Assembly: GCA_028688375.1 (NCBI GenBank)
Contig: JAQTYG010000001.1
Span: forward strand, 7,793 to 71,792
Direction: 5' to 3'
DNA length: 64,000 bases
From: Patescibacteria group bacterium
Lineage (GTDB): Bacteria > Patescibacteriota > Patescibacteriia > Magasanikbacterales > GWA2-37-8
Below the pieces are notes generated by a model that saw nothing but the letters and a program-made list of their open reading frames with translations, was not told the origin of the DNA and made no database searches. Shown piece by piece: positions 6,642 through 36,978 of this stretch. Every line of letters starts with the position of its first letter. The first letter of the stretch is position 1. Position numbers and translations under genes: made by a program.

Positions 6642-6667
6642 CATTTGAGTTTTGAGATTTTTCATAT

Positions 6668-7537: not shown

Positions 7538-8649
7538 AAAAAATCGCCCATATAGTTTCCACTTTTTGGCCCCGTCCGGGAGGGATGGGCCAGGTTTGTT
7601 TTGAGGAAGTAAAACGGCTCGCCGCCAATCACGACGTGTCGGTTTTTACCTTGCGTTACCACGGTTTGAATGAAGAAGAACCCGTGGCTGGTTTTACGGT
7701 TAAGCGAATCAAACCGTTGTTTCGTTTGGGCGACGCCGGCATGGTACGCGGTCTGGAAAAACAATTGGCTGATTTTGATGTTGTCCACGTACATTATCCA
7801 TTTTACGGCGCCATTCAGGCTATCACCGCGGCCGAGAAAAAATACGGATTCAAGTTGGTGGTAACCTATCACATGGACGCGCAGGTGAGCGGTGTCAAAA
7901 AAATACTGCAAAGTATCCACGACGCGTTGTGGGACGGCTGGTTATTCTCGCTGGCTGACAAGGTGTTGACGCCAGATAAAGAATATTTTGCCCTGGCGAA
8001 ATTTGGTCCGCGCGTGACTGCCGGCAAAATCGAAGTTTTGCCGAATGGGGTGGATACGGATTTTTTCCGTCCGGGCGCGGTTGATTGGGCCAAAATCGGG
8101 TTGGGCGACTTATCCGATAAAAAAATTATTCTATTTGTCGGAAATTTATTGGCGATTAAAAATTTAAATTTGCTGATCAAGGCGATGATCGATTTACCGC
8201 CGGAAGCATTGTTGGTTGTGGTCGGTGGCGGTTACGAAGAAAAAAAATATCGCGCGCTGGTTCGTCGGCTGGGCTTATCGGAGCGTATTATTTTTACCGG
8301 TGGCGACATTGATCGTGACAGATTGGCGCAGTTATATCGGTCCGCCACCGCGGTGGCTATTCCGTCGTTATCCGAATCTTTTTCCTTGGTGGCGGTGGAA
8401 GCCATGGCTTCGGGCGCGATTGTCGCCGGTAGCGACATCCCGGGTATTCGCGGGCGCGTGGCCAATAATGTGGACGGCTTCCTTTTTCCGGCGAATGATT
8501 TACCGGCTTGGGTGGCCGGTTTGAAACATATATTAAATTTATCGGCGGATGAGCGGCGGATTATTTCGGAAAGAGCTCGCGCGTCATCTTTGAAATATTC
8601 TCTGTCAGAACACGTAAAAAATTTAGAAAGAATTTATTCTTCGATCTAG
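7534..8649 (+). CDS. family-4 glycosyltransferase (GT-B fold)
   Basis: C-terminal Glycos_transf_1 signature SESFSLVAVEAMASG. ATGA overlap with the upstream gene. Confidence 0.75.
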   Translation: MKKIAHIVSTFWPRPGGMGQVCFEEVKRLAANHDVSVFTLRYHGLNEEEPVAGFTVKRIKPLFRLGDAGMVRGLEKQLADFDVVHVHYPFYGAIQAITAAEKKYGFKLVVTYHMDAQVSGVKKILQSIHDALWDGWLFSLADKVLTPDKEYFALAKFGPRVTAGKIEVLPNGVDTDFFRPGAVDWAKIGLGDLSDKKIILFVGNLLAIKNLNLLIKAMIDLPPEALLVVVGGGYEEKKYRALVRRLGLSERIIFTGGDIDRDRLAQLYRSATAVAIPSLSESFSLVAVEAMASGAIVAGSDIPGIRGRVANNVDGFLFPANDLPAWVAGLKHILNLSADERRIISERARASSLKYSLSEHVKNLERIYSSI

Positions 8650-21076: not shown

Positions 21077-21466
21077 TTGGTTATTGGAATTTGTCACCCT
21101 ATGTTTATCCTGGTTTTACAACGCGTGTTAGTCGGAGCAGTGCTGGATATTTTTTATTTTCCTCTTTGGTGGTATACCGTCGGCGCAAAACACGCCCTGC
21201 TTTGGTGCGTGGGACTTTTAGCCTACGGCAACGACAATTTCGCCCCCGGCCTGTGGCTGAAAAATATTTTTGTGCCCATGTACGGGCAGTATGATTTTCA
21301 AGGCAGGATCATCAGTTTTTTGATGCGTTTGGCGCAAATTATCGGCCGTTCGGTTGCTTTGGCGGTTTGGCTGGTTCTCTGTTTGATTTTATTTTTTATT
21401 TGGCTTTTAATCCCGGTAGTGATTGTTTGGGGATTGACGCGCGCTTTAAGCGTACCTAAAATATGA
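21077..21466 (+). CDS. hypothetical integral membrane protein
   Basis: Four hydrophobic helices. ATGA overlap with the downstream gene. Confidence 0.4.
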   Translation: MVIGICHPMFILVLQRVLVGAVLDIFYFPLWWYTVGAKHALLWCVGLLAYGNDNFAPGLWLKNIFVPMYGQYDFQGRIISFLMRLAQIIGRSVALAVWLVLCLILFFIWLLIPVVIVWGLTRALSVPKI

Positions 21467-24240
21467 TGTTTGAGAAAAAACCGCCGTTAGATATTTTGGC
21501 CTGCCCGTCATGTAAAGCGACCGGTTTGATTGGCTTTAAAAAATGCGCGCACTGCCACGGCATGTCTATGGGGCTGTCTCGGCGCGGGCAATGGCAATTC
21601 TGGTCTTATCCGTTGACGCGTTATAATCTGGCTTTACTGAACGGCCGGAGAATTTTTAATAAAATTCGACGCATCACCGCGGTGGTGCTTTGGCTTAATT
21701 GCTGGGTCTGGGCCGGATTGTTTATTTACCAAACCGGTGCTTACAAAGAATTTTTATTTGGTCCGAGCGCCTGGTTGCCGGCGCTGGCCAATTTGAGCGC
21801 CACCATTCAAATTTTATTTTGGCTGGGCGTAATTACCCTGTGTTATTTTTGGTACCGAACGATTACGGAGAAAAAAGCCCAAGGCGCGGTGGAAAAATAT
21901 GATTACGATAAAAAATCCGCCGACGAATCCACAGCCGGTAAAACTTACAGTTGGGGTGAGGCGCTAAAATTGCCGCGTCATAAAAAACGCGCCATTGATT
22001 CCACTTTTACCGACGAGGCGATGGCGGCGCTGGCCGAAGCCTATGGTTTCGCCGATAAAAATAATTACCCCACGCTTGACGCTTACCATTTATTTTACGC
22101 CCTGCTGGCTTTCAATCGCATCAGCAATGTTTTTATCCGGCTCGGTTTGCCGGCCAAATCGATTCGCGACAATATTTTTCAAATGATGGCCAAGCCGGCG
22201 AAATCGACGGCGCAGAATCGGGCGAGCATGCCCTTGTTGTCTCCGGATTTACAGCAGATACTTTTTCAGGCCTATGAAGAGGCCTATCAAGCGCACCAAG
22301 ATTATGTCAGCGTCACCGAATTATTGGTGGCGGTGGTGGCGCAGTCGCCGGAGATTCAGGAATTTTTATATGACCTGGAAGTGGACAAGCGCAAACTGGC
22401 GAACGCCGTGGAATGGGCGCGCATCCGCGAACGCCTTTATCGGCAATATATAAAATACAGCCGGGCCTCATCGCACCGTTCCAAAAAAGGCATGGATAAA
22501 GCCATGACCGCGCTGGCGACGCCGTATCTGAATGCTTTCAGTGAAGATTTGACGCTCTACGCTCAACTCGGGCGATTGGATTTCGCCGTGGCTCGCGATC
22601 GGGAAATGGAAGAACTTTTTAGAATCGTGGAAGGCGGCGGGCAAAACGTTATTTTAGTCGGCGTTCGCGGCGTGGGCAAGCGTAGTATCGTGGAAGGCCT
22701 GGCCGAGAGAATGGCGGCCGATGATGTCCCCAAACGTTTGCAGGATAAACGCTTGGTGCGTTTGAGCGTTTCCGCTTTGTTGTCCGGCACCACTCCGACC
22801 GGCGCCATTGAAAGATTGCGCAATATTTTGTCCGAAGTCAGGCGAGCGCGCAACGTTATTTTATTTATCCACAACATCCATGAATTAATCGGCGTCTCGG
22901 CCGGCGCCGGCAGTAGTTTGGACGTGGCCGACACTTTGGCCGAACAATTGAGCGGTGGAGAGGCTCTGACCATCGCCACCACGGCGACGGATGAATACGC
23001 CCGCCACATCGCCGGGTCTTCTTTGTCCGGCGTGTTTACCAAACTTGACGTTAAAGAAATGGAAGAGGACCAGGCCATTCAAGCGGTGGAATCAAGGATC
23101 GGCGCGTTGGAATACAAACACCAGGTTTTCTTTTCTTATGACGCGGTGGAAAAAGCGGTGCAGATGGCTGCGCGTTTTACTCACGAAAATTGTTTGCCGG
23201 GCAGCGCTTTGGCCATTGTCAGCGAAGCCGCCGCTTACGCGCGAAATAAAAAAGGCGCCGACTCGCTGGTCAGCGCCGAAGAAATTGCCCAGGTGGTGTC
23301 CGACAAAACCGGCATCCCGACCACGGCGATTGGCGCCGACGAATCCGGCAAACTGCTTAAGCTGGAAGAAGCCATGCACCAACGGGTGATCGGCCAGGAT
23401 GAAGCCGTGGATTTAGTGGCCAACGCTTTGCGCCGCGCGCGAGTGGAAATTCGCTCTAAAGCCAAACCGATCGCCAACTTTTTATTCCTTGGCCCGACCG
23501 GCGTCGGCAAAACCGAACTAGCCAAAACCATCGCCGCGGTGTATTTTGGCGGAGAAGAAAAAATGGTGCGCCTGGACATGAGCGAATATCAGGACAAATC
23601 CGGCATTTACCGCCTAATCGGCGCGCCCGGAGAAAAAGGCACCGGCATTTTAACCGAAGCCATCCGCCAGCACCCGTTCACTCTGTTACTGTTGGATGAA
23701 ATAGAAAAAGCCGACCCGGATATTTTAAATATTTTCTTGCAAGTAATGGACGACGGTCGTTTAACCGACAGCGCCGGCCGAGTAGTTGATTTTACTAATG
23801 CCATTATTATCGCCACTTCCAATGCGGGCACTTCTTACGTGCAGGAACAATTGCACGCCGGCCTTTCCACCGAAGCGATCAAAGAACGATTGTTACATGG
23901 TGAATTAAAACAATATTTCCGGCCGGAATTTTTAAATCGTTTTGACGGCATTGTTTTGTTCAAGCCGCTCGCTTTGGCAGACATTAAAAAAATCGCCAAG
24001 CTAATGCTGAAGCGCGTGGCCGCCGACTTGGATGCCAAAGGCATCGAGCTGGTAATTGGCGAAGCCGCTCTGGACTTTTTGGCCCAAGCCGGATATGATC
24101 CGGACTTTGGCGCCCGCCCGATGCGGCGCGTTTTGCAGGAGAGAGTGGAAAACCAGTTGGCGGAAATGTTATTGTCCGGCACGCTCAAACGCCGCGATAA
24201 AGTAATGGTCGGCGGCAATGGGGAATTAAGCGTAATTTAA
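21463..24240 (+). CDS. membrane-anchored Clp-family AAA+ ATPase (ClpB/ClpC-like) with N-terminal zinc ribbon, TM helices, Clp_N repeats and a degenerate NBD1
   Basis: CPSCKATG...CAHCHG zinc ribbon, then hydrophobic helices and Clp_N-like repeats. NBD1 has GVRGVGKRS, a Walker A lacking T/S. NBD2 is intact with GPTGVGKTELAK and a ClpB_D2-small domain. Confidence 0.65.
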   Translation: MMFEKKPPLDILACPSCKATGLIGFKKCAHCHGMSMGLSRRGQWQFWSYPLTRYNLALLNGRRIFNKIRRITAVVLWLNCWVWAGLFIYQTGAYKEFLFGPSAWLPALANLSATIQILFWLGVITLCYFWYRTITEKKAQGAVEKYDYDKKSADESTAGKTYSWGEALKLPRHKKRAIDSTFTDEAMAALAEAYGFADKNNYPTLDAYHLFYALLAFNRISNVFIRLGLPAKSIRDNIFQMMAKPAKSTAQNRASMPLLSPDLQQILFQAYEEAYQAHQDYVSVTELLVAVVAQSPEIQEFLYDLEVDKRKLANAVEWARIRERLYRQYIKYSRASSHRSKKGMDKAMTALATPYLNAFSEDLTLYAQLGRLDFAVARDREMEELFRIVEGGGQNVILVGVRGVGKRSIVEGLAERMAADDVPKRLQDKRLVRLSVSALLSGTTPTGAIERLRNILSEVRRARNVILFIHNIHELIGVSAGAGSSLDVADTLAEQLSGGEALTIATTATDEYARHIAGSSLSGVFTKLDVKEMEEDQAIQAVESRIGALEYKHQVFFSYDAVEKAVQMAARFTHENCLPGSALAIVSEAAAYARNKKGADSLVSAEEIAQVVSDKTGIPTTAIGADESGKLLKLEEAMHQRVIGQDEAVDLVANALRRARVEIRSKAKPIANFLFLGPTGVGKTELAKTIAAVYFGGEEKMVRLDMSEYQDKSGIYRLIGAPGEKGTGILTEAIRQHPFTLLLLDEIEKADPDILNIFLQVMDDGRLTDSAGRVVDFTNAIIIATSNAGTSYVQEQLHAGLSTEAIKERLLHGELKQYFRPEFLNRFDGIVLFKPLALADIKKIAKLMLKRVAADLDAKGIELVIGEAALDFLAQAGYDPDFGARPMRRVLQERVENQLAEMLLSGTLKRRDKVMVGGNGELSVI

Positions 24241-25721: not shown

Positions 25722-26726
25722 ATGCGTTTATTGGTTTGCGGCGGGGCAGGTTTTATCGGCTCCAATTTTATCCGCCTGATGCTAGCTAGATATCCGGATT
25801 ATAAAATTATCAATCTGGACCTTTTAACTTACGCCGGAAATCTGGCTAATTTAAAAGATGTTGAACAACGCGCTAATTATAAGTTTCTTAGAGGAGATAT
25901 CAATGACTCCAAGCTGGTAGAGTCTTTGGTAAAAGACGTGGATATTATTATCAATTTTGCCGCTGAAACGCATGTGGATCGTTCCATTATGGACAGTAGC
26001 GCTTTCTTGCGCACCAATGTAATTGGCACGCAAACCCTGCTTGAAGCCGCCAAAAAATATAATCGCCGTTATCACCAAGTTTCCACCGACGAGGTCTTCG
26101 GCAGTTTGGGCCCGAATGATCCGCCGTTCAACGAGACCACGCCTTATGATCCGCGCAGTCCTTACAGTGCCTCCAAGGCCGCTTCCGACCACCTGGTTCG
26201 CGCCTACTTCCATACCTATAACCTGCCGATCACCATTACTAATTGTTCCAATAATTACGGCCCCTACCAATTTCCGGAAAAATTGCACGGACTTTTTATT
26301 ACTAATTTATTGGAAGGCAAACAAGTACCAGTTTACGGCGACGGTTTGCAACGGCGCGATTGGCTCTACGTGGAAGATCATTGTGAAGCAATTGATTTGG
26401 TGATCCATCAAGGCAAAGTGGGGGAAACTTATTGCGTCGGTGGCGAAGGCGACCGCACTAATATGGAAATTACGAATAAATTTTTAGAATTGCTCGGGTT
26501 GGGCGAAGCCATGGTTGCTCATGTTAAAGACCGTCCGGGACATGATCGGCGTTATGCGATAAATAGTGATAAAATTCGCCGTGAGTTGGGTTGGGCGCCG
26601 CGGACCAGTTTTGAAGAAGGGATGAAAAAGACGGTGGAATGGTACAAAGCGAATGTTGATTGGTGGAAAAAAATAAAAAGCGGAGAATATCTGAAATATT
26701 ACGAAGAGCAATATATTATGCGATAA
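25722..26726 (+). CDS. rfbB: dTDP-glucose 4,6-dehydratase
   Basis: GGAGFIGSN, catalytic YSASKAASD, and length typical for RmlB. Confidence 0.85.
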   Translation: MRLLVCGGAGFIGSNFIRLMLARYPDYKIINLDLLTYAGNLANLKDVEQRANYKFLRGDINDSKLVESLVKDVDIIINFAAETHVDRSIMDSSAFLRTNVIGTQTLLEAAKKYNRRYHQVSTDEVFGSLGPNDPPFNETTPYDPRSPYSASKAASDHLVRAYFHTYNLPITITNCSNNYGPYQFPEKLHGLFITNLLEGKQVPVYGDGLQRRDWLYVEDHCEAIDLVIHQGKVGETYCVGGEGDRTNMEITNKFLELLGLGEAMVAHVKDRPGHDRRYAINSDKIRRELGWAPRTSFEEGMKKTVEWYKANVDWWKKIKSGEYLKYYEEQYIMR

Positions 26727-26980: not shown

Positions 26981-27820
26981 ATGAAGATACTCATTATCGG
27001 CGCCGGTTGGCTGGGGCGAAGATGCGCCGAGTCCTGGCCGGATGCGATTTTATCGGACAAACAAGTTGCCACTGTCGGCGATGTTTTGGCGCTTTTGGAC
27101 GAGCACAAACCCGATGCGGTTTTAAATGCCGCTGGCGTTGTCGGCAAACCCAATGTGGATTGGTGCGAGGCTAACCAAATGGAAACGATTAAGGGTAACA
27201 CAATTTTACCTCTGATCATCGCCGAGGCTTGCCAACAGCGCGGGGTATATTTATTGCACATGGGCACCGGCTGTATTTTTTACGGCGCCGCGCCCGATGG
27301 CAGCGCCTGGAAAGAAACTGATTACGCCAACCCGGTGGCGGTTTACACCCGAACAAAATACGCGGCCGATTTGTGTTTGACCACCTTGCCTAATGTCGGC
27401 ATCGCCCGGATTCGTATGCCGATTGATGAAATATCGTTTGAAGGAAATTTAATAAATAAATTGATCAGGTTCCCGCATGTAGTTGATGTAGAGAATAGCG
27501 TAACTATCGTGCCGGACATGATAAATGTTTTTCGCGCCCTGCTTGAGAAAAAAGCCGCCGGAATTTTTCATGTCACTAATCCCGGAACCATTAAACATCG
27601 GGAAATTATCGCCATGTATGAAGAATTGGTTGATCCAAAACATAAAAATGAGTGGATTACCGAACAGGGCCTGATTGACGAGGGGCTGGCGAAGAAAAAG
27701 CGCTCCAACAATTTTATGAGTTCTACCAATCTGGAAAAATTGGGTATTCACATGAGGCCGATTAAAGAAGCCCTCCGCGATACGCTGATAAAGTACGCGG
27801 AGAACAAGAAAAAAATGTAA
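26981..27820 (+). CDS. rfbD: dTDP-4-dehydrorhamnose reductase (RmlD-like)
   Basis: MKILIIGAGWLG, PDAVLNAAG and YTRTK (YxxxK), matching the RmlD substrate-binding family. Confidence 0.6.
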   Translation: MKILIIGAGWLGRRCAESWPDAILSDKQVATVGDVLALLDEHKPDAVLNAAGVVGKPNVDWCEANQMETIKGNTILPLIIAEACQQRGVYLLHMGTGCIFYGAAPDGSAWKETDYANPVAVYTRTKYAADLCLTTLPNVGIARIRMPIDEISFEGNLINKLIRFPHVVDVENSVTIVPDMINVFRALLEKKAAGIFHVTNPGTIKHREIIAMYEELVDPKHKNEWITEQGLIDEGLAKKKRSNNFMSSTNLEKLGIHMRPIKEALRDTLIKYAENKKKM

Positions 27821-27828
27821 TAACAAAA

Positions 27829-27863
27829 AGGCCCGTCCGCCAGCTGGCGGACGGGCCTTTTTA
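27829..27863 (+). terminator. rho-independent terminator
   Basis: AGGCCCGTCCGCCAGCTGGCGGACGGGCCT followed by TTTTT. Confidence 0.8.
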
Positions 27864-27873
27864 GTTTGGACTC

Positions 27874-27902
27874 TTGACATTTTTTAAGATTCGTGTTATA
27901 TT
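27874..27902 (+). promoter_or_regulatory. sigma-70-like promoter of HD paralog 1
   Basis: TTGACA, 17-nt spacer, TATATT. Followed by a ~120-nt leader containing GGAATACAAACAAA. Confidence 0.55.
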
Positions 27903-28022
27903 TATTTGTCCTTTAACAACTTAAAGGTAAATTTACAGAATACTTAGGGCGCGAGGAATACAAACAAAATCGCCCATGACGGGCCAAAATATCCGCCGAG
28001 AGCGGAATAGGAGAGTGACGCG

Positions 28023-29264
28023 ATGAACATCGAAACCACGAGAATGCGTTTGCTCCGCAGGCAGTCCGACTGCTGGGAGCGGATTGAGAAGAATCTCCAT
28101 TCCCTGAACCACGGTTCTCTTATCGCCCTGGACAACGATTTTCCTTGCGGTTTTTCCCGCCAGGAAGCGATAGAAACCGGCACCTGCGCCGTTGCCGCTA
28201 TCATGGACCGCCTTTCTCGTGCCGGCATGTTTTTCAACGAAGGCGACCCGGGGCACGGCCGTGGACATCTCATTCGGGATTACGTCGAGGCCGTTTGGCT
28301 CTTCAGCGCCTTGGACGCCCGTCCGGCCGACATTCTGATCGGTCTGGTCGCCGGCGCCTTGCACGACATCGGCTGTTTCCTGATACCGCGCTATGCCGAG
28401 GAAAAGCGATCGGTCAGGCACGCCGAAGCCTCGGCCCTGATCCTGGAAGAAGTCTTTTCCGAGTGCAACTGCGGTCTCACCCGGTCTGAACAGATGATGA
28501 TCGAGTACGCCATCTGCGCTCACACCCACTATCTGAAGCCGGCCGAGATCAAATTTGGCAACGGTCGGAAACGATTTATCGCGCCGTACCTGGACACAAG
28601 GCTCAACGGCGAACCGTACTGGTGGGTCTGGTACACGCGCTGGGTGGACCGCTTGGACACCAATGGCCCCAGCTTTGCCGCTCGTCATTACCTGACGATC
28701 GGCAAGCCGCACCTGGACTTCGATGGTGAGGATCACTTCGCCGTTGGCTACGCCCAGCACATGCGGCCGCTCCTGCGTTCCCGAGAGGAGCGGGGCAATG
28801 ATCCGCAGACGATGCTCGAGCATCTCGCCATGTTCGCCGCGACCGACGAGAATTCGCCATATGGCAAACACGACCGCAGAGAATTCATTACTCTGCGCGA
28901 CGGGCAGAGAAATCGCTCGAAACGAATCGTCGAGGCAGTCGAGAACGCGGGCATGACCAGGATCCCCGAGGCCGATGTCCTCTGCGCCTGGAACGATTTT
29001 CTCTCATTTCAGATAGAACATCCCGAGATCGCCGTCCCGGTTGTAAAGCAACTCTTTGAACAGTTTTCCAACCTGCCGCCCGATGTTCGGCACGCCTGGA
29101 CAGCCGGATTCCTGGCGATCATGGATGAATACCTCGACTGGTATCGGGTAGGGCAGAAGGATTTCGGCCATTTGCCCCATGCGTGGTTCAACCTTCCACA
29201 CTTTGGAGACGCTCTCGCCTTTATCCAACCCCACGGTCTCTGGCTGGACATCGTCCGGCCATAG
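28023..29264 (+). CDS. HD-domain phosphohydrolase with ~200-aa uncharacterised C-terminal domain (paralog 1, GC-shifted)
   Basis: HGRGH...GALHDIGC HD motifs. AGGAGAG RBS. Composition and codon use depart from neighbours. Confidence 0.6.
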   Translation: MNIETTRMRLLRRQSDCWERIEKNLHSLNHGSLIALDNDFPCGFSRQEAIETGTCAVAAIMDRLSRAGMFFNEGDPGHGRGHLIRDYVEAVWLFSALDARPADILIGLVAGALHDIGCFLIPRYAEEKRSVRHAEASALILEEVFSECNCGLTRSEQMMIEYAICAHTHYLKPAEIKFGNGRKRFIAPYLDTRLNGEPYWWVWYTRWVDRLDTNGPSFAARHYLTIGKPHLDFDGEDHFAVGYAQHMRPLLRSREERGNDPQTMLEHLAMFAATDENSPYGKHDRREFITLRDGQRNRSKRIVEAVENAGMTRIPEADVLCAWNDFLSFQIEHPEIAVPVVKQLFEQFSNLPPDVRHAWTAGFLAIMDEYLDWYRVGQKDFGHLPHAWFNLPHFGDALAFIQPHGLWLDIVRP

Positions 29265-29277
29265 CCGCCGCTCTTTC

Positions 29278-29342
29278 TCTCGCCCGAAGTTTTCTCTTCG
29301 GGCCAATCCAAAAGCACCTCACGAAATGGGGTGTTTTTGCTT
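29278..29342 (+). repeat. 65-bp cassette flank (unit 1) with terminator hairpin
   Basis: Identical to 30647-30711. Contains GCCCGAAG...CTTCGGGC and a CACCTCACGAAATGGGGTG hairpin followed by TTTTTG. Confidence 0.8.
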
Positions 29343-29352
29343 GTTAGCGGTC

Positions 29353-29381
29353 TTGACAAAAGGTCAAATTTGTGCTACTCT
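29353..29381 (+). promoter_or_regulatory. promoter of HD paralog 2
   Basis: TTGACA, 17-nt spacer, extended-10 TGcTACTCT. Followed by GGGATACAAACAAAGGAGG. Confidence 0.45.
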
Positions 29382-29426
29382 ATCCTGTTCTCGCTAAGGG
29401 GCGGGATACAAACAAAGGAGGAGCAA

Positions 29427-30632
29427 ATGCTCTTTGACATAGTAAAAGAACGTCTGAAAAACGAAGAAGGTTGTTTAAATTACATCGAAAAGTTGCGCGT
29501 CACGAACGTCGGAGACTGTTTGAAAAAAATTAGTTTCTCTAATTCCGACACCGCTTTAGCCAAAGCGGCCGAAATCACGCGCTATATCCTCCGCGTCCTA
29601 ACCGATAACGGCTTCAACTTTCTGGATACCATGGACCCCTGTCACGGCGTCGGACATTTTGTCCGTAGCTATATCAACACTCGCCTGCTTCTGTCTCTTG
29701 ATCCCTTGGTTGAACCGGCCGATGTGTTTCTCACCTATATCAGTGCGGTGTTGCACGACGTTGGCCGCTGCTTTGTTCCGCCCGTTGGCGAAAACCGCCT
29801 GGCCGTACCACACTCTTGGGCTGGAGCTATCGTTATTGATGAGTTGTTCAAACTCGATGCATGCCACTTGTCGGCAGAGGCGCGGCAATTGGTGTCGTTC
29901 GCCATCGGCGGACACCAGTGGAGCGTAAAGCCGCGAGTTGTCTTAAGCGAAGGCGGCGCCACCCGTGTCATTGAATCTTTCCCGGTGGAAGATCCGCACG
30001 GCAAATTGTATAAGTTTTTTTGGCTAGTGCGGTGTGTCGACCGCTTGGACGGAAACGGTTCCACAATAATCGGGCGCGATTTCCTTCATGCCTACAACGA
30101 AATTGGCCGAGCGGATTTCGCCGAGTATCTCAGTGTATTTTTGGAACCGCATCCGCGCGAAAAAAATTTGCGAGTACCCGGGTCAGAGACTCTGATCGAG
30201 GGACTGTACAGGCTGGCGACGACTCAAAACAATAGCTCGCCGTATAGTCGGCATGACTTTGGGAACATGATTCATATCTGCCAAGTCCAAACTTGGCGGC
30301 TCCTGCTCGTCCTCAATGCCGTCCAGCATCCGGAGATAGCGACCCCTTCGTCAGTGAAGCGGACAATGTCTCGCCAGACCCGTGATTGGCTTACCCGCTC
30401 AATTGATCCGTCGAAAAACGGTCAAGTGGCGGCAAGGGTTATGCTCGACCACCTCGATGCGATGCCTGACCGGGTGCGTCTTGCCTGGTTGTCCGGTTTC
30501 AATCAAGCTCGTTGGCTGTATTCCGAGTGGAGCATCGAAGCGCGCCACTGCTTAGACCAGATTCCTCTTGACGATCTCTACCTCAGATTACGTCGAGGAA
30601 CCGAATACTGCGTTCTCGATATTCTTGCCTGA
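29427..30632 (+). CDS. HD-domain phosphohydrolase (paralog 2 of 28023-29264)
   Basis: CHGVGH...AVLHDVGRC. Shares WVDRLD, NSSPY.RHD and HPEIA blocks with paralog 1. Strong RBS AAAGGAGGAGCAAATG. Confidence 0.6.
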   Translation: MLFDIVKERLKNEEGCLNYIEKLRVTNVGDCLKKISFSNSDTALAKAAEITRYILRVLTDNGFNFLDTMDPCHGVGHFVRSYINTRLLLSLDPLVEPADVFLTYISAVLHDVGRCFVPPVGENRLAVPHSWAGAIVIDELFKLDACHLSAEARQLVSFAIGGHQWSVKPRVVLSEGGATRVIESFPVEDPHGKLYKFFWLVRCVDRLDGNGSTIIGRDFLHAYNEIGRADFAEYLSVFLEPHPREKNLRVPGSETLIEGLYRLATTQNNSSPYSRHDFGNMIHICQVQTWRLLLVLNAVQHPEIATPSSVKRTMSRQTRDWLTRSIDPSKNGQVAARVMLDHLDAMPDRVRLAWLSGFNQARWLYSEWSIEARHCLDQIPLDDLYLRLRRGTEYCVLDILA

Positions 30633-30646
30633 TCTTTCCTACCTAG

Positions 30647-30711
30647 TCTCGCCCGAAGTTTTCTCTTCGGGCCAATCCAAAAGCACCTCACGAAATGGGG
30701 TGTTTTTGCTT
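30647..30711 (+). repeat. 65-bp cassette flank (unit 2) with terminator hairpin
   Basis: 100% identical to 29278-29342. Confidence 0.8.
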
Positions 30712-30714
30712 TAT

Positions 30715-30764
30715 CCTGTTAAATCCTCGCGCGGCGAGGTCCGCCTTCGGCGGAATTTAACAGG
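30715..30764 (+). ncRNA. compound structured element (10-bp closing stem around two GC hairpins)
   Basis: CCTGTTAAAT...ATTTAACAGG enclosing CCTCGCGCGGCGAGG and TCCGCCTTCGGCGGA. Function unknown. Confidence 0.25.
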
Positions 30765-30765
30765 G

Positions 30766-30828: not shown

Positions 30829-31905
30829 ATGAACACAAAAATTTTGGACAGTTTAGACGACATCCGCAAGCTAGACGGTTCCGGCATGCTGGACAGTTTG
30901 GAACTTTTGCCCGCTCAAGTGGAAGAAATCGTTCAATCCGCGAGTAAATTGCGATTTCCCGTCGGCTACAAACGAGCGAAAAATATCGTGGTCGCCGGCA
31001 TGGGCGGTTCAGCTCTGGGCGCGCACATCATTAAATCGCTGTTCTTCAAAGAATTAACCGTGCCGATGGAAATAGTCAACGGCTATCATCTGCCCGCTTA
31101 CGTGGGCAAAGATACATTTGTTTTGCTTTCCAGTTATTCTGGCGCCACCGAGGAAACTATCTCCGCGCTAGAAGCGGCTAAAGCGAAAAAAGCCAAAATC
31201 GCGGTGATTACTTCGGGCGGACGTTTGGCCAAGTGGGCCCGGGCGACCAAGGCGCCGGCGCTGATTTTCACCACTGCTAACAATCCTTGCGGTTCGCCGC
31301 GCATGGGCTTGGGTTATTCCATCGTGGGCCAGCTGATTCTTTTTGCCAAAACCGGTTTTATTCGTTTGCCCGCCGGAGAAATTAACGCCATCATCCATTT
31401 ATTTAAAAAATTCAACGCCGAATTCGGCGTGGTCGCCAGACAACAGGAAAATATCGCCAAGCGTTTAGCCATAAAAACCGTGGACAAAACCGTTTGGTTT
31501 ATCGGCGCGGAACATCTGGCCGGCAACATGCACACCGCCGCCAACCAGATGAATGAAAACGCCAAGCGTTTCGCCGGATATTTTTTGCTGCCGGAGTTAA
31601 ATCACCATTTGATGGAAGGCCTGCTTCATCCCAAAACAAACAAAGAAAATCTGCTTTTTGTTTTAGTGGAGTCCGACCTTTACGATCACAAAATTCAAAA
31701 AAGAATGGCCATCACCAAAAAAGTATTGGAAAAAAATCGGATTGATTTCGTGTCTTACAAATGCCAAGAAGACGGCGCCGTCGCCCAGGCCATGGAAATA
31801 TTGTCCTGGTTAAGTTATACCTCTTTTTATTCCGCCCTGTTGGAAAAAATTGACCCGACGCCGATCCCGTTCGTTGATTATTTCAAAAAAGAAATAGGCA
31901 AATAA
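30829..31905 (+). CDS. bifunctional phosphoglucose/phosphomannose isomerase (SIS domain)
   Basis: Two SIS-like halves, VVAGMGGSALGA, and length typical of the archaeal-type PGI/PMI family. Confidence 0.55.
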   Translation: MNTKILDSLDDIRKLDGSGMLDSLELLPAQVEEIVQSASKLRFPVGYKRAKNIVVAGMGGSALGAHIIKSLFFKELTVPMEIVNGYHLPAYVGKDTFVLLSSYSGATEETISALEAAKAKKAKIAVITSGGRLAKWARATKAPALIFTTANNPCGSPRMGLGYSIVGQLILFAKTGFIRLPAGEINAIIHLFKKFNAEFGVVARQQENIAKRLAIKTVDKTVWFIGAEHLAGNMHTAANQMNENAKRFAGYFLLPELNHHLMEGLLHPKTNKENLLFVLVESDLYDHKIQKRMAITKKVLEKNRIDFVSYKCQEDGAVAQAMEILSWLSYTSFYSALLEKIDPTPIPFVDYFKKEIGK

Positions 31906-31920
31906 TTTTTCTGTTCACGT

Positions 31921-32030
31921 GTCATTGCGAGGAGCCCCGCATTTACGGGGTGACGAAGCAATCCCAAGGAAAGCGAATGGATCTGTTAAAAAGGGGATTG
32001 CTTCACCGCCAGTTGGCGGTTCGCAAAGAC
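31921..32030. repeat. pair of GTCATTGCG...GCAATCC family repeats in opposite orientation
   Basis: GTCATTGCGAGGAGCCCCGCATTTACGGGGTGACGAAGCAATCCC and GGGATTGCTTCACCGCCAGTTGGCGGTTCGCAAAGAC. The second is near-identical to 51315-51351. Confidence 0.7.
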
Positions 32031-32053
32031 AAGGTGGGCGCTTAATACCGAGT

Positions 32054-32917
32054 ATGGACCTCTCAATCATTTCTGTTACCTGGAATTCCCAGGAGCATAT
32101 TGCCGAGCAAATCAAATCGGTTCGTTCCGGTTGCCAAAATATTTCTTTTGAACAATTCATAGTTGATAATGGCTCCACCGACGGCACCGCCGATTTAATC
32201 GCCCGAGATTTTCCGGAGATAAAATTAATTCGTAATATTGATAACGCCGGTTTTAGCGCCGCCAACAACCAGGCGGTAAAAAAAGCGACAGGGGAGTTCC
32301 TGTTGTTTTTAAATCCCGATATGCGCGTGGCGCCGGGCAGTTTGGATAAAATGGTCGCCTGGATGCGCCAGCGCCCCAACGTGGGCATTGTGAGTTGTAA
32401 ATTAATCGACGAGCGCGGCCAAGTTAACCTTTCCGCCTTACCCAGACGCTTACCCGGAGTTTGGGATCAGCTGGCGATTATTTTAAAACTCCCGCATCTT
32501 TTTCCGGGGTTATTGGATAAATATTTATATCAAGGTTTTGACGCGGACAAAGAACAAGAAGTGGACTCAGTGCGCGGTTCGTTTATGCTGATGCGCCGCG
32601 AGGTCAGCGACCGGCTCGGCTGGGCTTTTGACCCGCGGTATTTTATTTGGTTTGAAGACGTGGATATTTGTCGGGAAACGCGGAAATTCGGTCTAAAAAT
32701 TATGTACACTCCGCTAATCAGCTGTGTGGATTATGTTGGCCAAAGTTTTAAAAAGCGCGATACTTTTTGGAAGCAAAAACAATTTACCAAAAGCATGCTG
32801 GCTTATTTCCAAAAATGGGAATCATGGCAGCGCTGGATTTGGATCGCCGTGATTCGGCCGGTTGGCTTGGGTCTGGCTTGGTTAAGCGATTTTGTGTCGC
32901 AGAAAAATAAAATATGA
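32054..32917 (+). CDS. family-2 glycosyltransferase
   Basis: ISVTWN...VDNGSTDGT, NIDNAGFSAANN and a DxD-like FLNPD. ATG at 32054 lies after the repeat pair. Confidence 0.7.
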   Translation: MDLSIISVTWNSQEHIAEQIKSVRSGCQNISFEQFIVDNGSTDGTADLIARDFPEIKLIRNIDNAGFSAANNQAVKKATGEFLLFLNPDMRVAPGSLDKMVAWMRQRPNVGIVSCKLIDERGQVNLSALPRRLPGVWDQLAIILKLPHLFPGLLDKYLYQGFDADKEQEVDSVRGSFMLMRREVSDRLGWAFDPRYFIWFEDVDICRETRKFGLKIMYTPLISCVDYVGQSFKKRDTFWKQKQFTKSMLAYFQKWESWQRWIWIAVIRPVGLGLAWLSDFVSQKNKI

Positions 32918-33951
32918 AGCTTTCGGTGCATTTAGTCGTCTGGAACGGCGCCAAATATATTCCATATTTGTTCGACTCGTTAAAAAAACAATCTGGTAAA
33001 GATTGGTTTTTGTTTATTTGGGATAATAAATCCACCGACGGCACCGTGACGGCGATACAAAAAGAATTGAGTGATTTTAGTCAGCCGTATCGTTTGGAAC
33101 AAAGCGACGTTAATCTCGGTTTTGCGCCGGCGCATAATAAATTAATTCGCGCCACCGATTCGGAATATTTTTTACTGTTGAATCAGGACATGTATTTGGC
33201 GCCGGATTGTTTGGAAAAAATGGTTAAATTTTTGGACGAACATCCGGAGACGGCGGCGGTATCCCCGCGCTTGATGAAATGGAATTTTTCTGATATTCAA
33301 AACGGCCTGGCCGGAACTTTTAGCCCAGAAGTGGACGCCATCGGTCTGAAAATTTTTCGCCATCGACGGGTGGTGGAATGGTTGACCCAAGCCACTTGGC
33401 CGGTTAAAAATTTGGCCGAGAAAAACGAGGTGGAGGTGTTCGGCGTGTCCGGCGCTTTCCCCCTATTTCGTCGCAGCCAAGTCAAAGAAGTTTTTTTCGC
33501 CGATGGCGCCATGTTTGACGAATCGTATCATTCATATAAAGAAGACGTTGATTTGGCCTATCGTTTAACCGCGCGCGGATTCAAATCTTTTGTTTTGTTG
33601 GACTCGGTCGCTTATCACGATCGCGCCGGCGCCGGGACGAAAGAAGCGCATGACCCGGCCGCGGCGCGCAATAAGAAAAATCAATCAAGTTGGGTAAAAT
33701 ACCACAGCTATAAAAACCATTTAGCCACGCTTTATAAAAATGAATACGGACAGAATCTAGCCCTTGATTTTCTTTGGATTTTATGGTATGAATTGAAGAA
33801 GTTTGTTTATTTTCTGCTGTTTGACCGCGCCGTGTTGGCCGGTTTAAAAGAAATTTGGCGGGCGAGAATCGACCTTAAAAACAAGCGCGCTCAAATTAAA
33901 AAATTGCGCCAAATTAATTGGCGCGCTATGCGCCGCTGGTGGAGCTTATGA
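32914..33951 (+). CDS. family-2 glycosyltransferase
   Basis: VVWNGAKY...WDNKSTDGT GT-A motifs. Start overlaps the upstream stop. Confidence 0.7.
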   Translation: MKLSVHLVVWNGAKYIPYLFDSLKKQSGKDWFLFIWDNKSTDGTVTAIQKELSDFSQPYRLEQSDVNLGFAPAHNKLIRATDSEYFLLLNQDMYLAPDCLEKMVKFLDEHPETAAVSPRLMKWNFSDIQNGLAGTFSPEVDAIGLKIFRHRRVVEWLTQATWPVKNLAEKNEVEVFGVSGAFPLFRRSQVKEVFFADGAMFDESYHSYKEDVDLAYRLTARGFKSFVLLDSVAYHDRAGAGTKEAHDPAAARNKKNQSSWVKYHSYKNHLATLYKNEYGQNLALDFLWILWYELKKFVYFLLFDRAVLAGLKEIWRARIDLKNKRAQIKKLRQINWRAMRRWWSL

Positions 33952-34793
33952 AAGACATAAATATCGTCCTGGTTAATTTTTTGATTAAAGATGACACGCT
34001 CAACGCCATTGCTTCGCTGGTCCAAGATACGGCGAGTTGTCCTTTTTCCGTACAGATAACCGTAGCCGATAACTCCCGTAATCAGGACGGGATAAAAGAC
34101 GCGCTAGCGGAAAATTTTCCGCTGGTAAAATATGTTGATTGTGGTGGTAACGTCGGTTTCGGCCGGGGTAACAATATCGGTTTTCAAACCACGGAAGCCA
34201 GATATTACTTCGCTTTAAATTCCGACGTGGTTATCCCGGATAACTCGCGCACTGTGGAAAGACTCATTCGTTTCATGGACGAGCATCCGAAGATCGGCTG
34301 CGCCGGCCCGAAACTGGTTAATCCGGACGGCACTTTGCAATATACTTGTTTTCGTTTTGATTTGCCGTCGATTTTGATTAAGCCGTTTAAACAAATTAAT
34401 TGGGATAAAAAATATTCCTGGATCAAGAAGCACGCCGATAAACTAATCATGAAAGATTTTAATCACCATGCCACCATGCCGGTGGATTGGGTGCTGGGCG
34501 CGGCTTTGATTGTTCGCGCTGAAGCAGTAAAACAGGTGGGCTGGTTTGACGAGCGATATTTTATGTATATGGAAGATTGCGATTGGTGCCACGAATTTTG
34601 GGCGCGCGGCTGGCCGGTTTATTATGTTCATGATATTGTAATCAGGCACGGCCTGACTCGTAATTCGGCGAAAGTGCCGGGAGTTTTTCGCCCCTTATTT
34701 AAAAATCGTTTGGCGCGCGTTCACCTGATCAGCTGGCTGAAATATTTATGGAAGTGGCGCGGACAACACAAATATTATGCGGAATTATCCTAA
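33948..34793 (+). CDS. family-2 glycosyltransferase
   Basis: VADNSRNQDG...GGNVGFGRGNN. ATGA overlap with the upstream gene. Confidence 0.65.
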   Translation: MKDINIVLVNFLIKDDTLNAIASLVQDTASCPFSVQITVADNSRNQDGIKDALAENFPLVKYVDCGGNVGFGRGNNIGFQTTEARYYFALNSDVVIPDNSRTVERLIRFMDEHPKIGCAGPKLVNPDGTLQYTCFRFDLPSILIKPFKQINWDKKYSWIKKHADKLIMKDFNHHATMPVDWVLGAALIVRAEAVKQVGWFDERYFMYMEDCDWCHEFWARGWPVYYVHDIVIRHGLTRNSAKVPGVFRPLFKNRLARVHLISWLKYLWKWRGQHKYYAELS

Positions 34794-35874
34794 AGTAGCC
34801 ATTATCTATTTGTCGTTTCATTGCGAGCCGTATTTGAACGACGTTATTTCTGGTTTGCGCAAAATGACTTACCCGAAGGATCGGGTGGAGTTTATCGTGG
34901 TAGACAATCCGCACCCGGAGCATGGTTCTTCCACGCGTTTTTTACAGGAAAATTTAATGCCGTTGGCCGGGCATGATTTGCCGTCCGTTACCATTTTACC
35001 GCAAGCCACTAATCTTGGTTTTTCCGGCGGTAATAATGTCGGCATTAAGTGGGCGCTGGAGCGCGGCTTTGATTACATCTATCTACATAATTATGACGGC
35101 TTTGTCACAGCTAATTTTTTGGAGCCGTTGGTGGCAGCGATGGAAACGGATAAAAATATCGGCGTGGTCCAATCGCTGATGATGCTTTATCCGGATACGG
35201 ATTTGATAAACAGCACCGGCAACTCGTTTCATTATTTGGGTTTGGGTTTTTGTAATAATCTGCGCCGGCCGATCAAAGATTTGATTTTGCCGGCTATCGC
35301 CGAGACCGCTTACGCCAGCGGGGCGGCCGTGCTTTTGCGCGCCGATTTATTGCAAAAATTCGGCGTCTGGGACGAAGATTACGTGCTTTATCACGAGGAT
35401 ATTGAATATTCTTTTCGTTTAAGAATTGCCGGCTATAAAATCGTGGTGGCGCGTGATTCCATTTTTTATCATAAATATTCTTTCAGCCGGAACAAAGGAA
35501 AATTTTATTTAATTGAACGCAATCGCTACGGGTTGATGCTGATGTATTTTAAGTGGCCGACACTGGTATTATTTTTGCCGGCGGCGATATTTCTGGATTT
35601 GGGCTTGTTGCTTTTCGCCGCTCTCTCCGGCTGGTTTAAAGAAAAATTGCGCGCTTACGGCTATTGGCTGCAAATTAAAAATTGGCGGCTGTGGCTGGCC
35701 AAACGTCGGCATGTTCAGACGCTTCGCGTCGTGCCGGATAAAGAATTGACGAAATTATTCACCGGTCAAATCGTGTTTGGCGAAAAAGGCATCAACAACC
35801 CGTTGTTAAAATATGTCGGCAACCCGATTCTGTCCGCCTATTGGTGGATTGCCAGAAAAATTATTTTTTGGTAA
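34777..35874 (+). CDS. family-2 glycosyltransferase with C-terminal TM helices
   Basis: VVDNPHP...GFSGGNNVG and two C-terminal hydrophobic segments. Confidence 0.65.
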   Translation: MRNYPKVAIIYLSFHCEPYLNDVISGLRKMTYPKDRVEFIVVDNPHPEHGSSTRFLQENLMPLAGHDLPSVTILPQATNLGFSGGNNVGIKWALERGFDYIYLHNYDGFVTANFLEPLVAAMETDKNIGVVQSLMMLYPDTDLINSTGNSFHYLGLGFCNNLRRPIKDLILPAIAETAYASGAAVLLRADLLQKFGVWDEDYVLYHEDIEYSFRLRIAGYKIVVARDSIFYHKYSFSRNKGKFYLIERNRYGLMLMYFKWPTLVLFLPAAIFLDLGLLLFAALSGWFKEKLRAYGYWLQIKNWRLWLAKRRHVQTLRVVPDKELTKLFTGQIVFGEKGINNPLLKYVGNPILSAYWWIARKIIFW

Positions 35875-35889
35875 AACATTTGTCATCTT

Positions 35890-36978
35890 ATGTGGAAAAT
35901 TAGGAAAGCCGTATTGACCGGCGGGGGACGAGCCACTCGTCTGCGGCCGGTGACGGCGACAATCAATAAACACCTGATACCCTTGGCCAACAAGCCGATG
36001 ATTTTTCATGCTATTGAAAAAGCGGTGGAGGCGGGGATTGAGGAAATTTTTATCAATACCAATCCGGGTGAAACCGAACTGCAAAAATATGTCGGCGACG
36101 GCGGGCACTGGGGGATTAAGATTAAATTTTTTGAGCAGGAAGGCGGTCCGCAAGGCGTGGCGCACGTGGTTAAACAAGCGGAGAAATTTATCGGCGACGA
36201 GCCGTTTCTGTTCTATTTATCCGACAATATTATTTTAGGCAGTATCAAAGGTTTTGTGGACGATTTTTCCCGTGGCGAGCACGACTGCATGCTGGCCTTG
36301 TCCCAAGTGCACAATCCGGAAAGTTTCGGCGTGCCGATTTTTAACGAGCAAAATCAGTTGGTTGATGTTTGGGAAAAACCGGCGCAACCGCCGAATAATT
36401 TTGCCGTGACCGGCATTTATCTTTACGGCCCGAAAGTATTTTTTGAGGCGTTTTCTAAAATAGACAAAAGCGCGAGAGGAGAGTATGAAATTACCGGCAT
36501 TCATTCGCACTTTTTGAAAAATAATTATCGCGTCGGCCATCGGGAAATTACCGGTTGGTGGAAAGACACCGGCCAGCCGTTGGATTTAACCGCCGCGAAT
36601 AAATTATTGTTGGACGAATTATCGGCTGATAAATTTGTCGTCCGCGGTCAGGTTGAAACCGGCGCGCAAATTACCGGTCATGTGCATATCGGCGCCGGCA
36701 CCACCGTGCGCAACGACGTGAAAATTACCGGACCGGTGATTATCGGCGAAAACTGCACCCTAGAGAACTGCGTGATTAATCCTTATACCACCATTGGCGC
36801 CGGCACCACCATAAAAAATGCCGAAATCAGCAGTTCCATTATTTTTGGCAATTGCACTGTGGATTGCCCGCTGAAAATTACGGACAGTATCATCGGAGAA
36901 AAGGCGGCGATTATAAAACGTCGGACGGACGAATGCCGGCGATTGATTTTGGGCGAGCAGACGGTGATTGAAATTTAA
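35890..36978 (+). CDS. sugar-1-phosphate nucleotidyltransferase (RmlA/G1P thymidylyltransferase-like) with C-terminal left-handed beta-helix
   Basis: LTGGGRATRLRP (GxGTRL) and C-terminal hexapeptide repeats. Confidence 0.6.
   Translation: MWKIRKAVLTGGGRATRLRPVTATINKHLIPLANKPMIFHAIEKAVEAGIEEIFINTNPGETELQKYVGDGGHWGIKIKFFEQEGGPQGVAHVVKQAEKFIGDEPFLFYLSDNIILGSIKGFVDDFSRGEHDCMLALSQVHNPESFGVPIFNEQNQLVDVWEKPAQPPNNFAVTGIYLYGPKVFFEAFSKIDKSARGEYEITGIHSHFLKNNYRVGHREITGWWKDTGQPLDLTAANKLLLDELSADKFVVRGQVETGAQITGHVHIGAGTTVRNDVKITGPVIIGENCTLENCVINPYTTIGAGTTIKNAEISSSIIFGNCTVDCPLKITDSIIGEKAAIIKRRTDECRRLILGEQTVIEI

Follow-up and report, generated by a model that had tools for sequence, protein, structure and literature searches.

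Proteins of the HD superfamily share an H..HD..D signature on an all-helical core. An extended form of this signature, H..HD..H..H..D, is the published diagnostic of dinuclear HD sites, and the HD phosphatase subfamily (YfbR, YpgQ, SpoT, SAMHD1 and others) has a strictly conserved arginine, typically three residues before the first histidine (PMC8177086). Here we describe two adjacent HD genes, A and B, in a 64,000-nucleotide stretch of DNA (the window) from a Patescibacteria group bacterium (contig JAQTYG010000001.1, positions 7,793 to 71,792), together with the uncharacterised family to which they belong. On balance, and with somewhat more than even confidence, we read A and B as members of an HD/phosphodiesterase-like family that acts in surface-glycan or sugar-nucleotide metabolism, and not as a defence cassette. 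Patescibacteria (bacteria of the candidate phyla radiation, CPR) and DPANN archaea have a host-attached way of life, in which surface glycans probably play a central part; much of the gene content of both groups is unannotated.

Gene A (28023–29264, plus strand) encodes 413 residues and gene B (29427–30632, plus strand) encodes 401. The open reading frame (ORF) of B begins mechanically at 29331; the ATG at 29427 lies 6 nt past an AGGAGG. The first-pass annotation of this DNA had read the two products as diverged HD-core paralogs, and their homology is borne out: about 370 residues align, 27% of them identical (E 1e-35). The HD core motifs PGHGxGH and LHD[IV]G occur in both, as does a block N.SPY..HD. 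Two further blocks that had been listed as shared hold up less well: WVDRLD of A reads CVDRLD in B, and HPEIA, present in both proteins, occupies positions that do not align (B has SIDPSKNG where the family has NIEPSxxG; A there reads IEHPEIA). HPEIA was thus ruled out as a family motif, the shared pentapeptide being a coincidence.

A has 126 full-length homologues, at 35–45% identity, every one of them annotated as ‘hypothetical’; the bacterial sources are Falkow-, Terry-, Peregrini-, Uhr-, Shapiro- and Woesebacteria, and the archaeal ones Pace-, Woese- and Nanoarchaeota. An exhaustive hidden Markov model (HMM) search with a 44-sequence profile against 1.84 billion representative proteins (50% identity clusters) placed 258 clusters in the family, 239 of them below E 1e-10. 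By these searches the family, about 400 residues in length, is small, sharply bounded and limited to CPR bacteria and DPANN archaea, and it comprises two deep clades that are 26–28% identical to each other. The Pfam HD profile (PF01966) reaches A only marginally (23.3 bits, the gathering threshold being 22) and gives B 17.3 bits. Neither protein has a match above threshold in NCBIfam, PADLOC or PHROGs, and 2.9 million viral contigs contained no relative of the family. It thus appears that no Pfam or NCBIfam family covers these proteins and that they carry no annotation; a search of the literature for HD-domain proteins of CPR or DPANN organisms with a link to rhamnose or rml genes returned nothing relevant.

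Some family members have N-terminal transmembrane segments. Two are unusually long (P0181, 1520 aa; P0214, 991 aa); they contain no other Pfam domain, and their extra parts match no neighbourhood gene. In a Saccharibacteria metagenome-assembled genome (MAG; locus L014, 6658–7899) the family gene is split into ORFs at 6658–7149 and 7183–7899, through a frameshift, a pseudogene or an assembly error. Loci L006, L011, L017, L020, L026, L029 and others come from MAGs labelled ‘uncultured Gammaproteobacteria’, ‘Vicinamibacterales’ or ‘Planctomycetes’; their gene order is nevertheless that of Falkowbacteria-like CPR contigs such as L018, and they are probably taxonomically mislabelled or mis-binned.

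What kind of enzyme might this be? Numbering residues as in A and counting conservation over the 44 sequences, we found ten invariant positions: G81, H82, H114, H133, H167, R206, D209, R210, R221 and D284. D115 is present in 43 of the 44 sequences, and H169 in 40, B being among those that have lost it. The H..HD..D signature on an all-helical core makes it very probable that A, B and the family as a whole are HD-superfamily metalloenzymes. H133 and H167, each in 44/44, complete a ligand set H82..H114-D115..H133..H167(xH169)..D209, which has the dinuclear pattern and predicts a two-metal site. The arginine of the HD phosphatases is missing: glycine fills column 79 in 39 of 44 sequences, column 80 varies among P, L, I, V and R, and column 75 holds an acidic residue (D or E). 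A conserved arginine, R85 (42/44), lies instead three residues after H82.

The AlphaFold (AF2) model of A is confident (predicted local distance difference score, pLDDT, 93.6; predicted template-modelling score, pTM, 0.93), and that of B (pLDDT 92.8) has the same fold. Among solved folds, the class I cyclic-nucleotide phosphodiesterases come closest to these models, together with small HD hydrolases (YpgQ, YedJ, 2pq7). A profile search of PDB sequences found only 2pq7 (E 0.0015), with the GH, LHD, HAE and DRLD blocks aligned. Foldseek returned no significant whole-chain match in the PDB: the top rows were terpene synthases with a TM-score of ~0.2, and high probability was given only to 2pjq, an HD protein. 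The HD oxygenases MIOX, PhnZ and TmpB were absent from the top 60 structural matches.

To describe the gene neighbourhood, we collected 41 loci from GTDB species genomes with the family profile, added contig look-ups, and classified ORFs against reference RmlA, RmlB, RmlC and RmlD. RmlB is encoded within 8 kb of the HD gene in 24 of about 40 loci, and in about 21 the HD gene directly adjoins a gene for nucleoside diphosphate (NDP)-sugar metabolism. The neighbours in these ~24 loci are RmlB, RmlD, RmlA, RmlC, other short-chain dehydrogenases (SDRs) and aminotransferases. Gene order varies between groups: rmlC-x-nudix-rmlB-HD-rmlD-rmlA in Falkowbacteria-like genomes, rpsG-x-HD-rmlB-rmlC-rmlD-x-fusA in Shapiro- and Woesebacteria (Microgenomates), whose HD proteins are 26–28% identical to A, rmlB-rmlA-SDR-SDR-HD-SDR-rmlC-degT in DPANN archaea, and rmlD/A-rmlB-3xGT2-HD in L046, where GT2 denotes a family-2 glycosyltransferase. 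The linkage to rml genes holds for each of the two deep clades and spans Bacteria and Archaea alike, and the family is a habitual member of NDP-6-deoxyhexose clusters in the two domains. In two Terrybacteria loci (L044, 5507–8248; L045, 37–2778) the HD gene stands just downstream of an rve-family insertion sequence (IS) transposase, away from sugar genes, which gives the family a single instance of a mobile setting.

This recurrent association makes a functional tie between the family and NDP-sugar or glycan metabolism likely. Around the predicted two-metal centre, whose metal binding we infer from the ligand set, lie many conserved arginines and aromatics (R85, R206, R210, R221, Y170, W203, W207 and Y280), and the enzyme would hydrolyse a phosphodiester or phosphoanhydride bond. 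Because the gene resides mostly inside rml/NDP-sugar clusters, typically as rmlB-HD-rmlD-rmlA, the substrate would most likely be a nucleotide-sugar or a nucleotide by-product of the 6-deoxyhexose pathway. We hold the specific chemistry, hydrolysis of a nucleotide-sugar or nucleotide diphosphate, only tentatively, at a little under an even chance.

The same residues and the same neighbourhoods have to be set against two other enzymatic interpretations. In the first, the family would belong with the HD diiron oxygenases MIOX, PhnZ and TmpB, or would be some other metalloenzyme with non-hydrolytic chemistry. Its target would be an intermediate, either a sugar or a nucleotide-sugar, and the reaction might for instance be an oxidative cleavage of a C-C or C-X bond, or else the isomerisation or dehydration of the 4-keto-6-deoxy intermediate with the help of a metal. 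H..HD..H..H..D is exactly the motif of the three known HD oxygenases, the phosphatase arginine is missing, and the gene lies between the rmlB dehydratase and the rmlD reductase, where an intermediate-modifying enzyme would be expected. The window, moreover, has no rmlC, and Nudix-fold sugar 2,3-dehydratases offer a precedent for a hydrolase fold recruited to non-hydrolytic sugar chemistry. The many invariant arginines, however, suggest a phosphate-rich ligand, and most CPR and DPANN organisms are anaerobes, a poor fit with O2-dependent chemistry. In many loci rmlC stands beside the HD gene, so the HD gene is not a general replacement for it. We regard this interpretation as distinctly improbable.

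In the second, the family would be a general nucleotide-pool enzyme, such as a YpgQ-like NTP/dNTP pyrophosphohydrolase, and its linkage to rml genes a by-product of ancestry or co-transfer. CPR and DPANN organisms depend on nucleotide salvage, YpgQ hydrolyses (d)NTPs, and roughly a quarter of the loci have no sugar genes nearby. Yet adjacency recurs in clades that are only 26–28% identical, in different gene orders and in Bacteria as well as Archaea, and the family is twice the size of YpgQ, with two extra histidine ligands and without the phosphatase arginine. A general role in the nucleotide pool is for these reasons improbable, and a role in the sugar-nucleotide pathway remains the interpretation that we prefer.

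Within the window, the two genes appear to have had different histories. The first-pass annotation described the pair as a GC-shifted block. Measured against the 47 other genes of the window (GC 0.484 ± 0.030; GC at third codon positions, GC3, 0.554 ± 0.049), A is an outlier, with GC 0.584 and GC3 0.720 (z +3.4 for both), the top of the 49 window genes. B has a host-like GC3 of 0.585 (z +0.6), and its small excess in total GC is confined to codon positions 1 and 2 and so reflects amino-acid composition. The shifted block is really one gene, A. An antisense ORF of 312 codons that had been noticed there does exist (27933–28871, minus strand); composition is the simplest explanation for it, given that the gene on the other strand, A, has a higher GC3 than any other gene of the window. 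A is the canonical copy of the family, and its synonymous-site composition suggests a fairly recent acquisition, whose direction and timing we infer. Across the family, the HD gene is GC-richer than its neighbours in all 30 main-clade loci, by at least 0.10 at GC3 in 14 of them, a pattern that points either to repeated acquisition from donors of higher GC or to an unusual constraint on codon usage. Among the related loci L001–L032 the largest GC3 excess over neighbours is +0.41, in L024.

B, in contrast, is a strongly derived orphan. At the 58 positions that are at least 90% conserved in the family it deviates 27 times, against 4 for A and at most 9 for every other member. The signature residues lost include R132, E135, T168, H169, Y170 and W207; all ten invariant residues are kept. 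Its best non-self match is 31–32% identical, above its 27% to A; no relative closer than 32% was found among ~15 billion proteins, and a word-indexed search with B returned only B itself. In a neighbour-joining tree, a weak method, A groups with P0002 and Falkowbacteria-like sequences, and the long branch of B arises at another place in the main clade. A and B thus do not appear to be sister sequences or a recent duplicate pair. Tandem pairs of family genes are found in only 2 of ~40 loci. The other, in the distant clade (L037, 4909–7494), was set aside as a parallel: it retains 77–78% DNA identity in conserved coding blocks, which makes it a much younger duplication than A/B, and it has no identical flanks. 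B is not visibly a pseudogene; we see it as an old or fast-evolving resident copy in which specificity may have changed (neofunctionalisation) or selection may have relaxed.

Against this divergence stands a perfect repeat. A 65-nt element, here called T65, follows both genes in direct orientation on the plus strand (29278–29342 and 30647–30711), starting 13 nt past the stop codon of A and 14 nt past that of B. As the first-pass annotation reported, the two copies are 100% identical, and no such match arose in 100 shuffles. In the predicted fold of T65 (free energy −36.5 kcal/mol, z −4.9) two hairpins form, with a T-run after the second; this second hairpin reads GCACCTCA-CGAAA-TGGGGTG and continues into TTTTTGCTT, and a terminator scan picks 30678–30708 in the second copy. 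With a GC-rich stem-loop and a T-run past the stop codon, T65 has the features of a Rho-independent terminator. Similarity stops exactly at the repeat ends, with no homology beyond the 65 nt, and the window holds no third copy, even with 3 mismatches allowed. Nor did T65 turn up in the 50 fetched loci, in JGI metagenomes or in IMG/VR viral contigs, in searches that used a pattern preserving the stems as well as the second hairpin as an exact string. Rfam has no family for T65 or for the leaders of the two genes. A possible degenerate, older copy of the 3′ end of T65 and its flank upstream of B (CTCTATCCTGTT versus CTTTATCCTGTT) was not significant, its score being reached by 86 of 2000 shuffles.

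Perfect identity over 65 nt beside coding sequences diverged to saturation requires a recent recombination or duplication event, a point on which we agree with the first-pass annotation. We see the identical T65 copies as the product of a recent local duplication or recombination, and not as the end of a mobile element: there are two direct copies only, with no inverted partner of the kind expected for integron attC sites, IS elements or the ends of miniature inverted-repeat transposable elements, and no integrase or transposase gene lies between ~17 and 41 kb of the window. The terminator may have been copied when one of the genes was inserted; a segment [T65-promoter-B] or [promoter-A-T65] from a close strain may have entered by single-crossover or homology-facilitated insertion; or short-patch conversion may have made the copies identical. 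Two sequencing runs yielded Logan contigs with one end inside T65, and these independently show the junctions from A into T65 and from T65 into the promoter of B. Because T65 to B to T65 forms a cycle in an assembly graph, neither the copy number of the B unit nor a circular form can be read from the assembly. The duplicated terminator may lead short-read assembly astray, and it makes the number of copies of gene B uncertain.

These observations bear on whether B is functional at all. B might be a decaying or non-catalytic remnant, replaced by an incoming A, with the identity of T65 explained by short-patch conversion or by reuse of the terminator at A's insertion. The loss of 27 of 58 signature residues, the lack of any close relative and the contrast between B's native and A's foreign composition would all agree with this. 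Its frame of 401 codons is nevertheless intact, with the ten invariant residues, a strong AGGAGG ribosome-binding site, a promoter-like site and a terminator, and its confident model has the family fold, though the prediction leans on the family alignment. Gene conversion, in addition, needs flanking homology, of which there is none past 65 nt. We consider a remnant unlikely, while giving it more weight than either of the enzymatic alternatives above, and we treat B as a derived member of the family.

T65 is also what led to the initial proposal that the pair forms a diversifying accessory cassette, for defence or signalling-nucleotide hydrolysis, which duplicates or recombines through its identical ends. 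Its geometry is suggestive: the repeats bracket B and its promoter with a period of 1369 nt, which is the arrangement to be expected of a single-crossover insertion and which permits excision. A is compositionally foreign, the closest relatives lack the genes, the fold resembles that of cyclic-nucleotide phosphodiesterases, Cas3-HD-like matches occur weakly, and one homologue adjoins an IS transposase. Against this, PADLOC, PHROGs and NCBIfam give nothing at threshold, viral contigs hold no relative, and the neighbourhood contains no cyclase, sensor, helicase, cas, integrase or transposase gene; for cas, helicase, integrase and transposase genes this covers ~10 kb around A and B. T65 occurs twice and nowhere else in the collections searched, which speaks against a self-propagating cassette; tandem pairs are rare, and the other one has no identical flanks. 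The dominant context in both domains is NDP-sugar biosynthesis and not defence islands. We accordingly find no support for the defence or signalling role or for the self-propagating cassette, and consider this account very improbable.

Several observations weigh against the sugar-nucleotide reading that we prefer. The arginine three residues before the first histidine, expected of an HD phosphatase, is absent, and the HD-domain diiron oxygenases use the same six-ligand motif. Foldseek found no significant whole-chain match in the PDB, and no characterised counterpart exists for about half of the sequence, a beta-hairpin insertion and the C-terminal helices among it. About 11 of the 40 loci have no sugar-nucleotide gene within 8 kb; in L048 the HD gene lies between a solute-binding protein gene and that of RNase J, and in L044 beside an IS transposase and methyltransferases. 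The shared neighbourhood partly reflects the common ancestry of Falkowbacteria-like genomes, so that the loci do not count as separate observations. B, with its long branch, is placed only weakly by neighbour joining, and A's high GC3 could be a trait of the family rather than a sign of recent transfer.

The nearest relatives of this genome are Ca. Magasanikbacteria, whose ClpC is 71% identical. Two of them (L049 and L050) keep a backbone RecJ-LepA-MurJ-...-ClpC-x-FtsW-4xGT2, followed by rmlB-fdtA-rmlD and the gene for a cupin-type glucose phosphate isomerase (cupin GPI), and neither locus has the HD gene. The window instead has the order rmlB-rmlD′-HD-HD-SIS PGI-4xGT2-NTP transferase, PGI being a phosphoglucose isomerase; its sugar-nucleotide module differs from that of the relatives in both content and place. 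Upstream of A lie an rmlB gene for a dTDP-glucose 4,6-dehydratase-type short-chain dehydrogenase (25722–26726, plus strand; Pfam GDP_Man_Dehyd 6.9e-87, Epimerase 2.5e-64) and a gene for a divergent RmlD-like reductase (26981–27820, plus strand; RmlD_sub_bind 1.3e-18). RmlB is 63% identical to that of a Falkowbacteria locus (L003) versus 48% to that of the closest relative (L049), and the RmlD-like protein is 27–31% identical to RmlD of the same two loci. Downstream of B, all on the plus strand, follow an SIS-type phosphoglucose/phosphomannose isomerase gene (30829–31905; bact-PGI_C 1.3e-27, SIS 2.7e-09), four family-2 glycosyltransferase genes (31919–35874; Glycos_transf_2), orthologous to those of the closest relatives and 42–63% identical to GT2a-d of L049, and a gene for an RmlA-like sugar-1-phosphate nucleotidyltransferase with a left-handed beta-helix tail (35890–36978; NTP_transferase 6.5e-46; 32% identical to RmlA of L003). 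No rmlC was found anywhere in the 64 kb.

The swapped sugar-nucleotide module marks the locus as a site of module exchange, at which the HD genes are accessory on the scale of the lineage. That the closest relatives keep the ClpC-FtsW-4xGT2 backbone without an HD gene supports the earlier view that these are not housekeeping genes of this lineage. The companion claim, that the pair interrupts an otherwise syntenic sugar cluster, stands in so far as those relatives lack the gene; since the family resides recurrently in NDP-6-deoxyhexose clusters across two domains, the pair is not a foreign interruption.

Each gene seems to have its own signals. The rmlB-rmlD unit is closed by a perfect 38-nt palindrome (27825–27862; no strand assigned), an inverted repeat (I2) of 19+19 nt that is 100% complementary (AAAAAGGCCCGTCCGCCAG / CTGGCGGACGGGCCTTTTT), A- and T-tracts lying to either side. 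Its form is that of a textbook bidirectional terminator; an Rfam scan of it gave sub-threshold matches only. A short-read Logan contig (L043) begins immediately past it. TTGACA hexamers, claimed earlier as promoters for both genes, do occur upstream of each. That of A (27874–27902, plus strand; TTGACA-17-TATATT) is TG-extended and matches 11 of 12 consensus positions, a consensus match only. That of B (29353–29381, plus strand; TTGACA-17-TACTCT), with TGC just before the −10 hexamer, aligns with it but failed the −10 criterion of the promoter scan, which passed only A's. With palindrome and T65 copies acting as terminators, A and B would each be a transcription unit of its own.

The leader motif that was said to be shared fares similarly. 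The core GGRATACAAACAAA is identical at 13 of 14 positions between the two leaders, and with indels the similarity extends to about 25 nt: CTTAGGGCGCGAGGAATACAAACAAA before A (27943–27968, plus strand) versus CTAAGGGGCGGGATACAAACAAA before B (29394–29416, plus strand), the latter ending 10 nt before the ATG. The local-alignment score of 26 compares with 14.4 ± 2.2 for shuffles and is reached by 2 of 2000, yet an unrelated upstream region scores 25 against that of A, and the distances from motif to promoter and to start codon differ between the genes. The shared motif is at best borderline.

Other features of the window were noted in passing. Between the second T65 copy and the promoter-like site of the pgi gene, 30713–30765 can form a Y-shaped three-way junction (fold z −5.8), with two GC-rich hairpins inside an outer stem of 10 bp (CCTGTTAAAT/ATTTAACAGG); it has no Rfam match. 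A ClpC-type AAA+ protein (21463–24240, plus strand), 58–72% identical across Magasanikbacteria-like genomes, carries an N-terminal Cys-rich, zinc-ribbon-like segment and hydrophobic helices before its Clp_N domain. On the minus strand, at 37126–37611 and 37948–38115, a GC-rich gene of 161 codons (local GC ~0.58) stands beside two tandem tRNA-Pro genes (anticodons CGG and GGG). At the window edge an AT-rich outlier gene (62452–63072, plus strand; GC 0.364, GC3 0.372, z −3.7) may be foreign DNA.

The sequence features reported by the first-pass annotation are thus largely borne out, its cassette interpretation mostly not. The locus itself presents one canonical and one strongly derived copy of the family, and it is not a defence island. 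More widely, the compact and well-conserved family could serve to trace the exchange of genes between CPR bacteria and DPANN archaea, and it is a concrete, testable candidate for an unknown nucleotide-sugar reaction: it combines a predicted two-metal HD site and a phosphodiesterase-like model with a lack of annotation, it occurs in two domains of life, and its gene repeatedly lies between those for the dehydratase and the reductase of rhamnose-type pathways. Taken to its furthest, the evidence would sketch an unrecognised step in NDP-6-deoxyhexose and surface-glycan metabolism that is peculiar to ultra-small symbionts, in which a dinuclear phosphodiesterase-like HD enzyme acts on a dTDP- or other NDP-sugar or on a nucleotide product, moves between CPR and DPANN organisms with rml genes and, in the recombination-prone, T65-bounded B unit, is gained, lost or amplified so as to switch isoforms and vary the glycan. 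In this full form the picture is speculative and probably wrong in part; we would not expect it to hold as a whole.

How, then, does the family compare with described systems? With the HD nuclease of Cas3 and Cas3″ it has weak local similarity around the HD and the second-histidine region, and dinuclear HD sites are common to the two, in our family by prediction; the NCBIfam cas3_HD model (TIGR01596) scores the proteins at 16.8 and 19.5 bits, below its cut-off of 43.45, and the PADLOC matches are sub-threshold (E ≥ 1e-4) and limited to the HD core. The diiron oxygenases MIOX, PhnZ and TmpB have an identical six-residue pattern, H..HD..H..H..D, and MIOX feeds a nucleotide-sugar pathway in plants and animals.

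YpgQ, a metal-dependent (d)NTP pyrophosphohydrolase, and its relatives YedJ and 2pq7 include the sole solved relative detectable by sequence profile (2pq7). They are small proteins of ~175–215 aa with a mononuclear H..HD..D site and the phosphatase arginine before the first histidine, whereas our family has ~400 residues, the additional invariant H133 and H167, an arginine after the first histidine, a unique beta-hairpin insertion and C-terminal helices. The class I phosphodiesterases (PDE1–11; PDEase_I) resemble the family in having an all-helical HD core above the minimal HD size and, in the family by prediction, a two-metal site in which H..HD..D is joined by extra ligands. The resemblance has clear bounds: sequence identity is ~10%, only half of the 413 residues superpose, and the Pfam PDEase_I profile (PF00233) gives no match even at E ≤ 1. 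The family, furthermore, sits in a context of sugar-nucleotide biosynthesis and not of signalling, with no cyclase nearby.

A parallel in function, by analogy only, may be seen in the Nudix hydrolases encoded in glycan clusters, such as the GDP-mannose mannosyl hydrolase Gmm/WcaH. The folds are unrelated. In both cases, though, a putative or known hydrolase is encoded among NDP-sugar genes, and that of the Nudix system presumably controls the pool of nucleotide-sugars. In L003, L006, L021, L030 and L046 the HD gene itself has Nudix genes for company. By this analogy the HD family could serve in pool control, in the clean-up of intermediates or in nucleotide recycling, as has been proposed for Nudix hydrolases of other glycan clusters.

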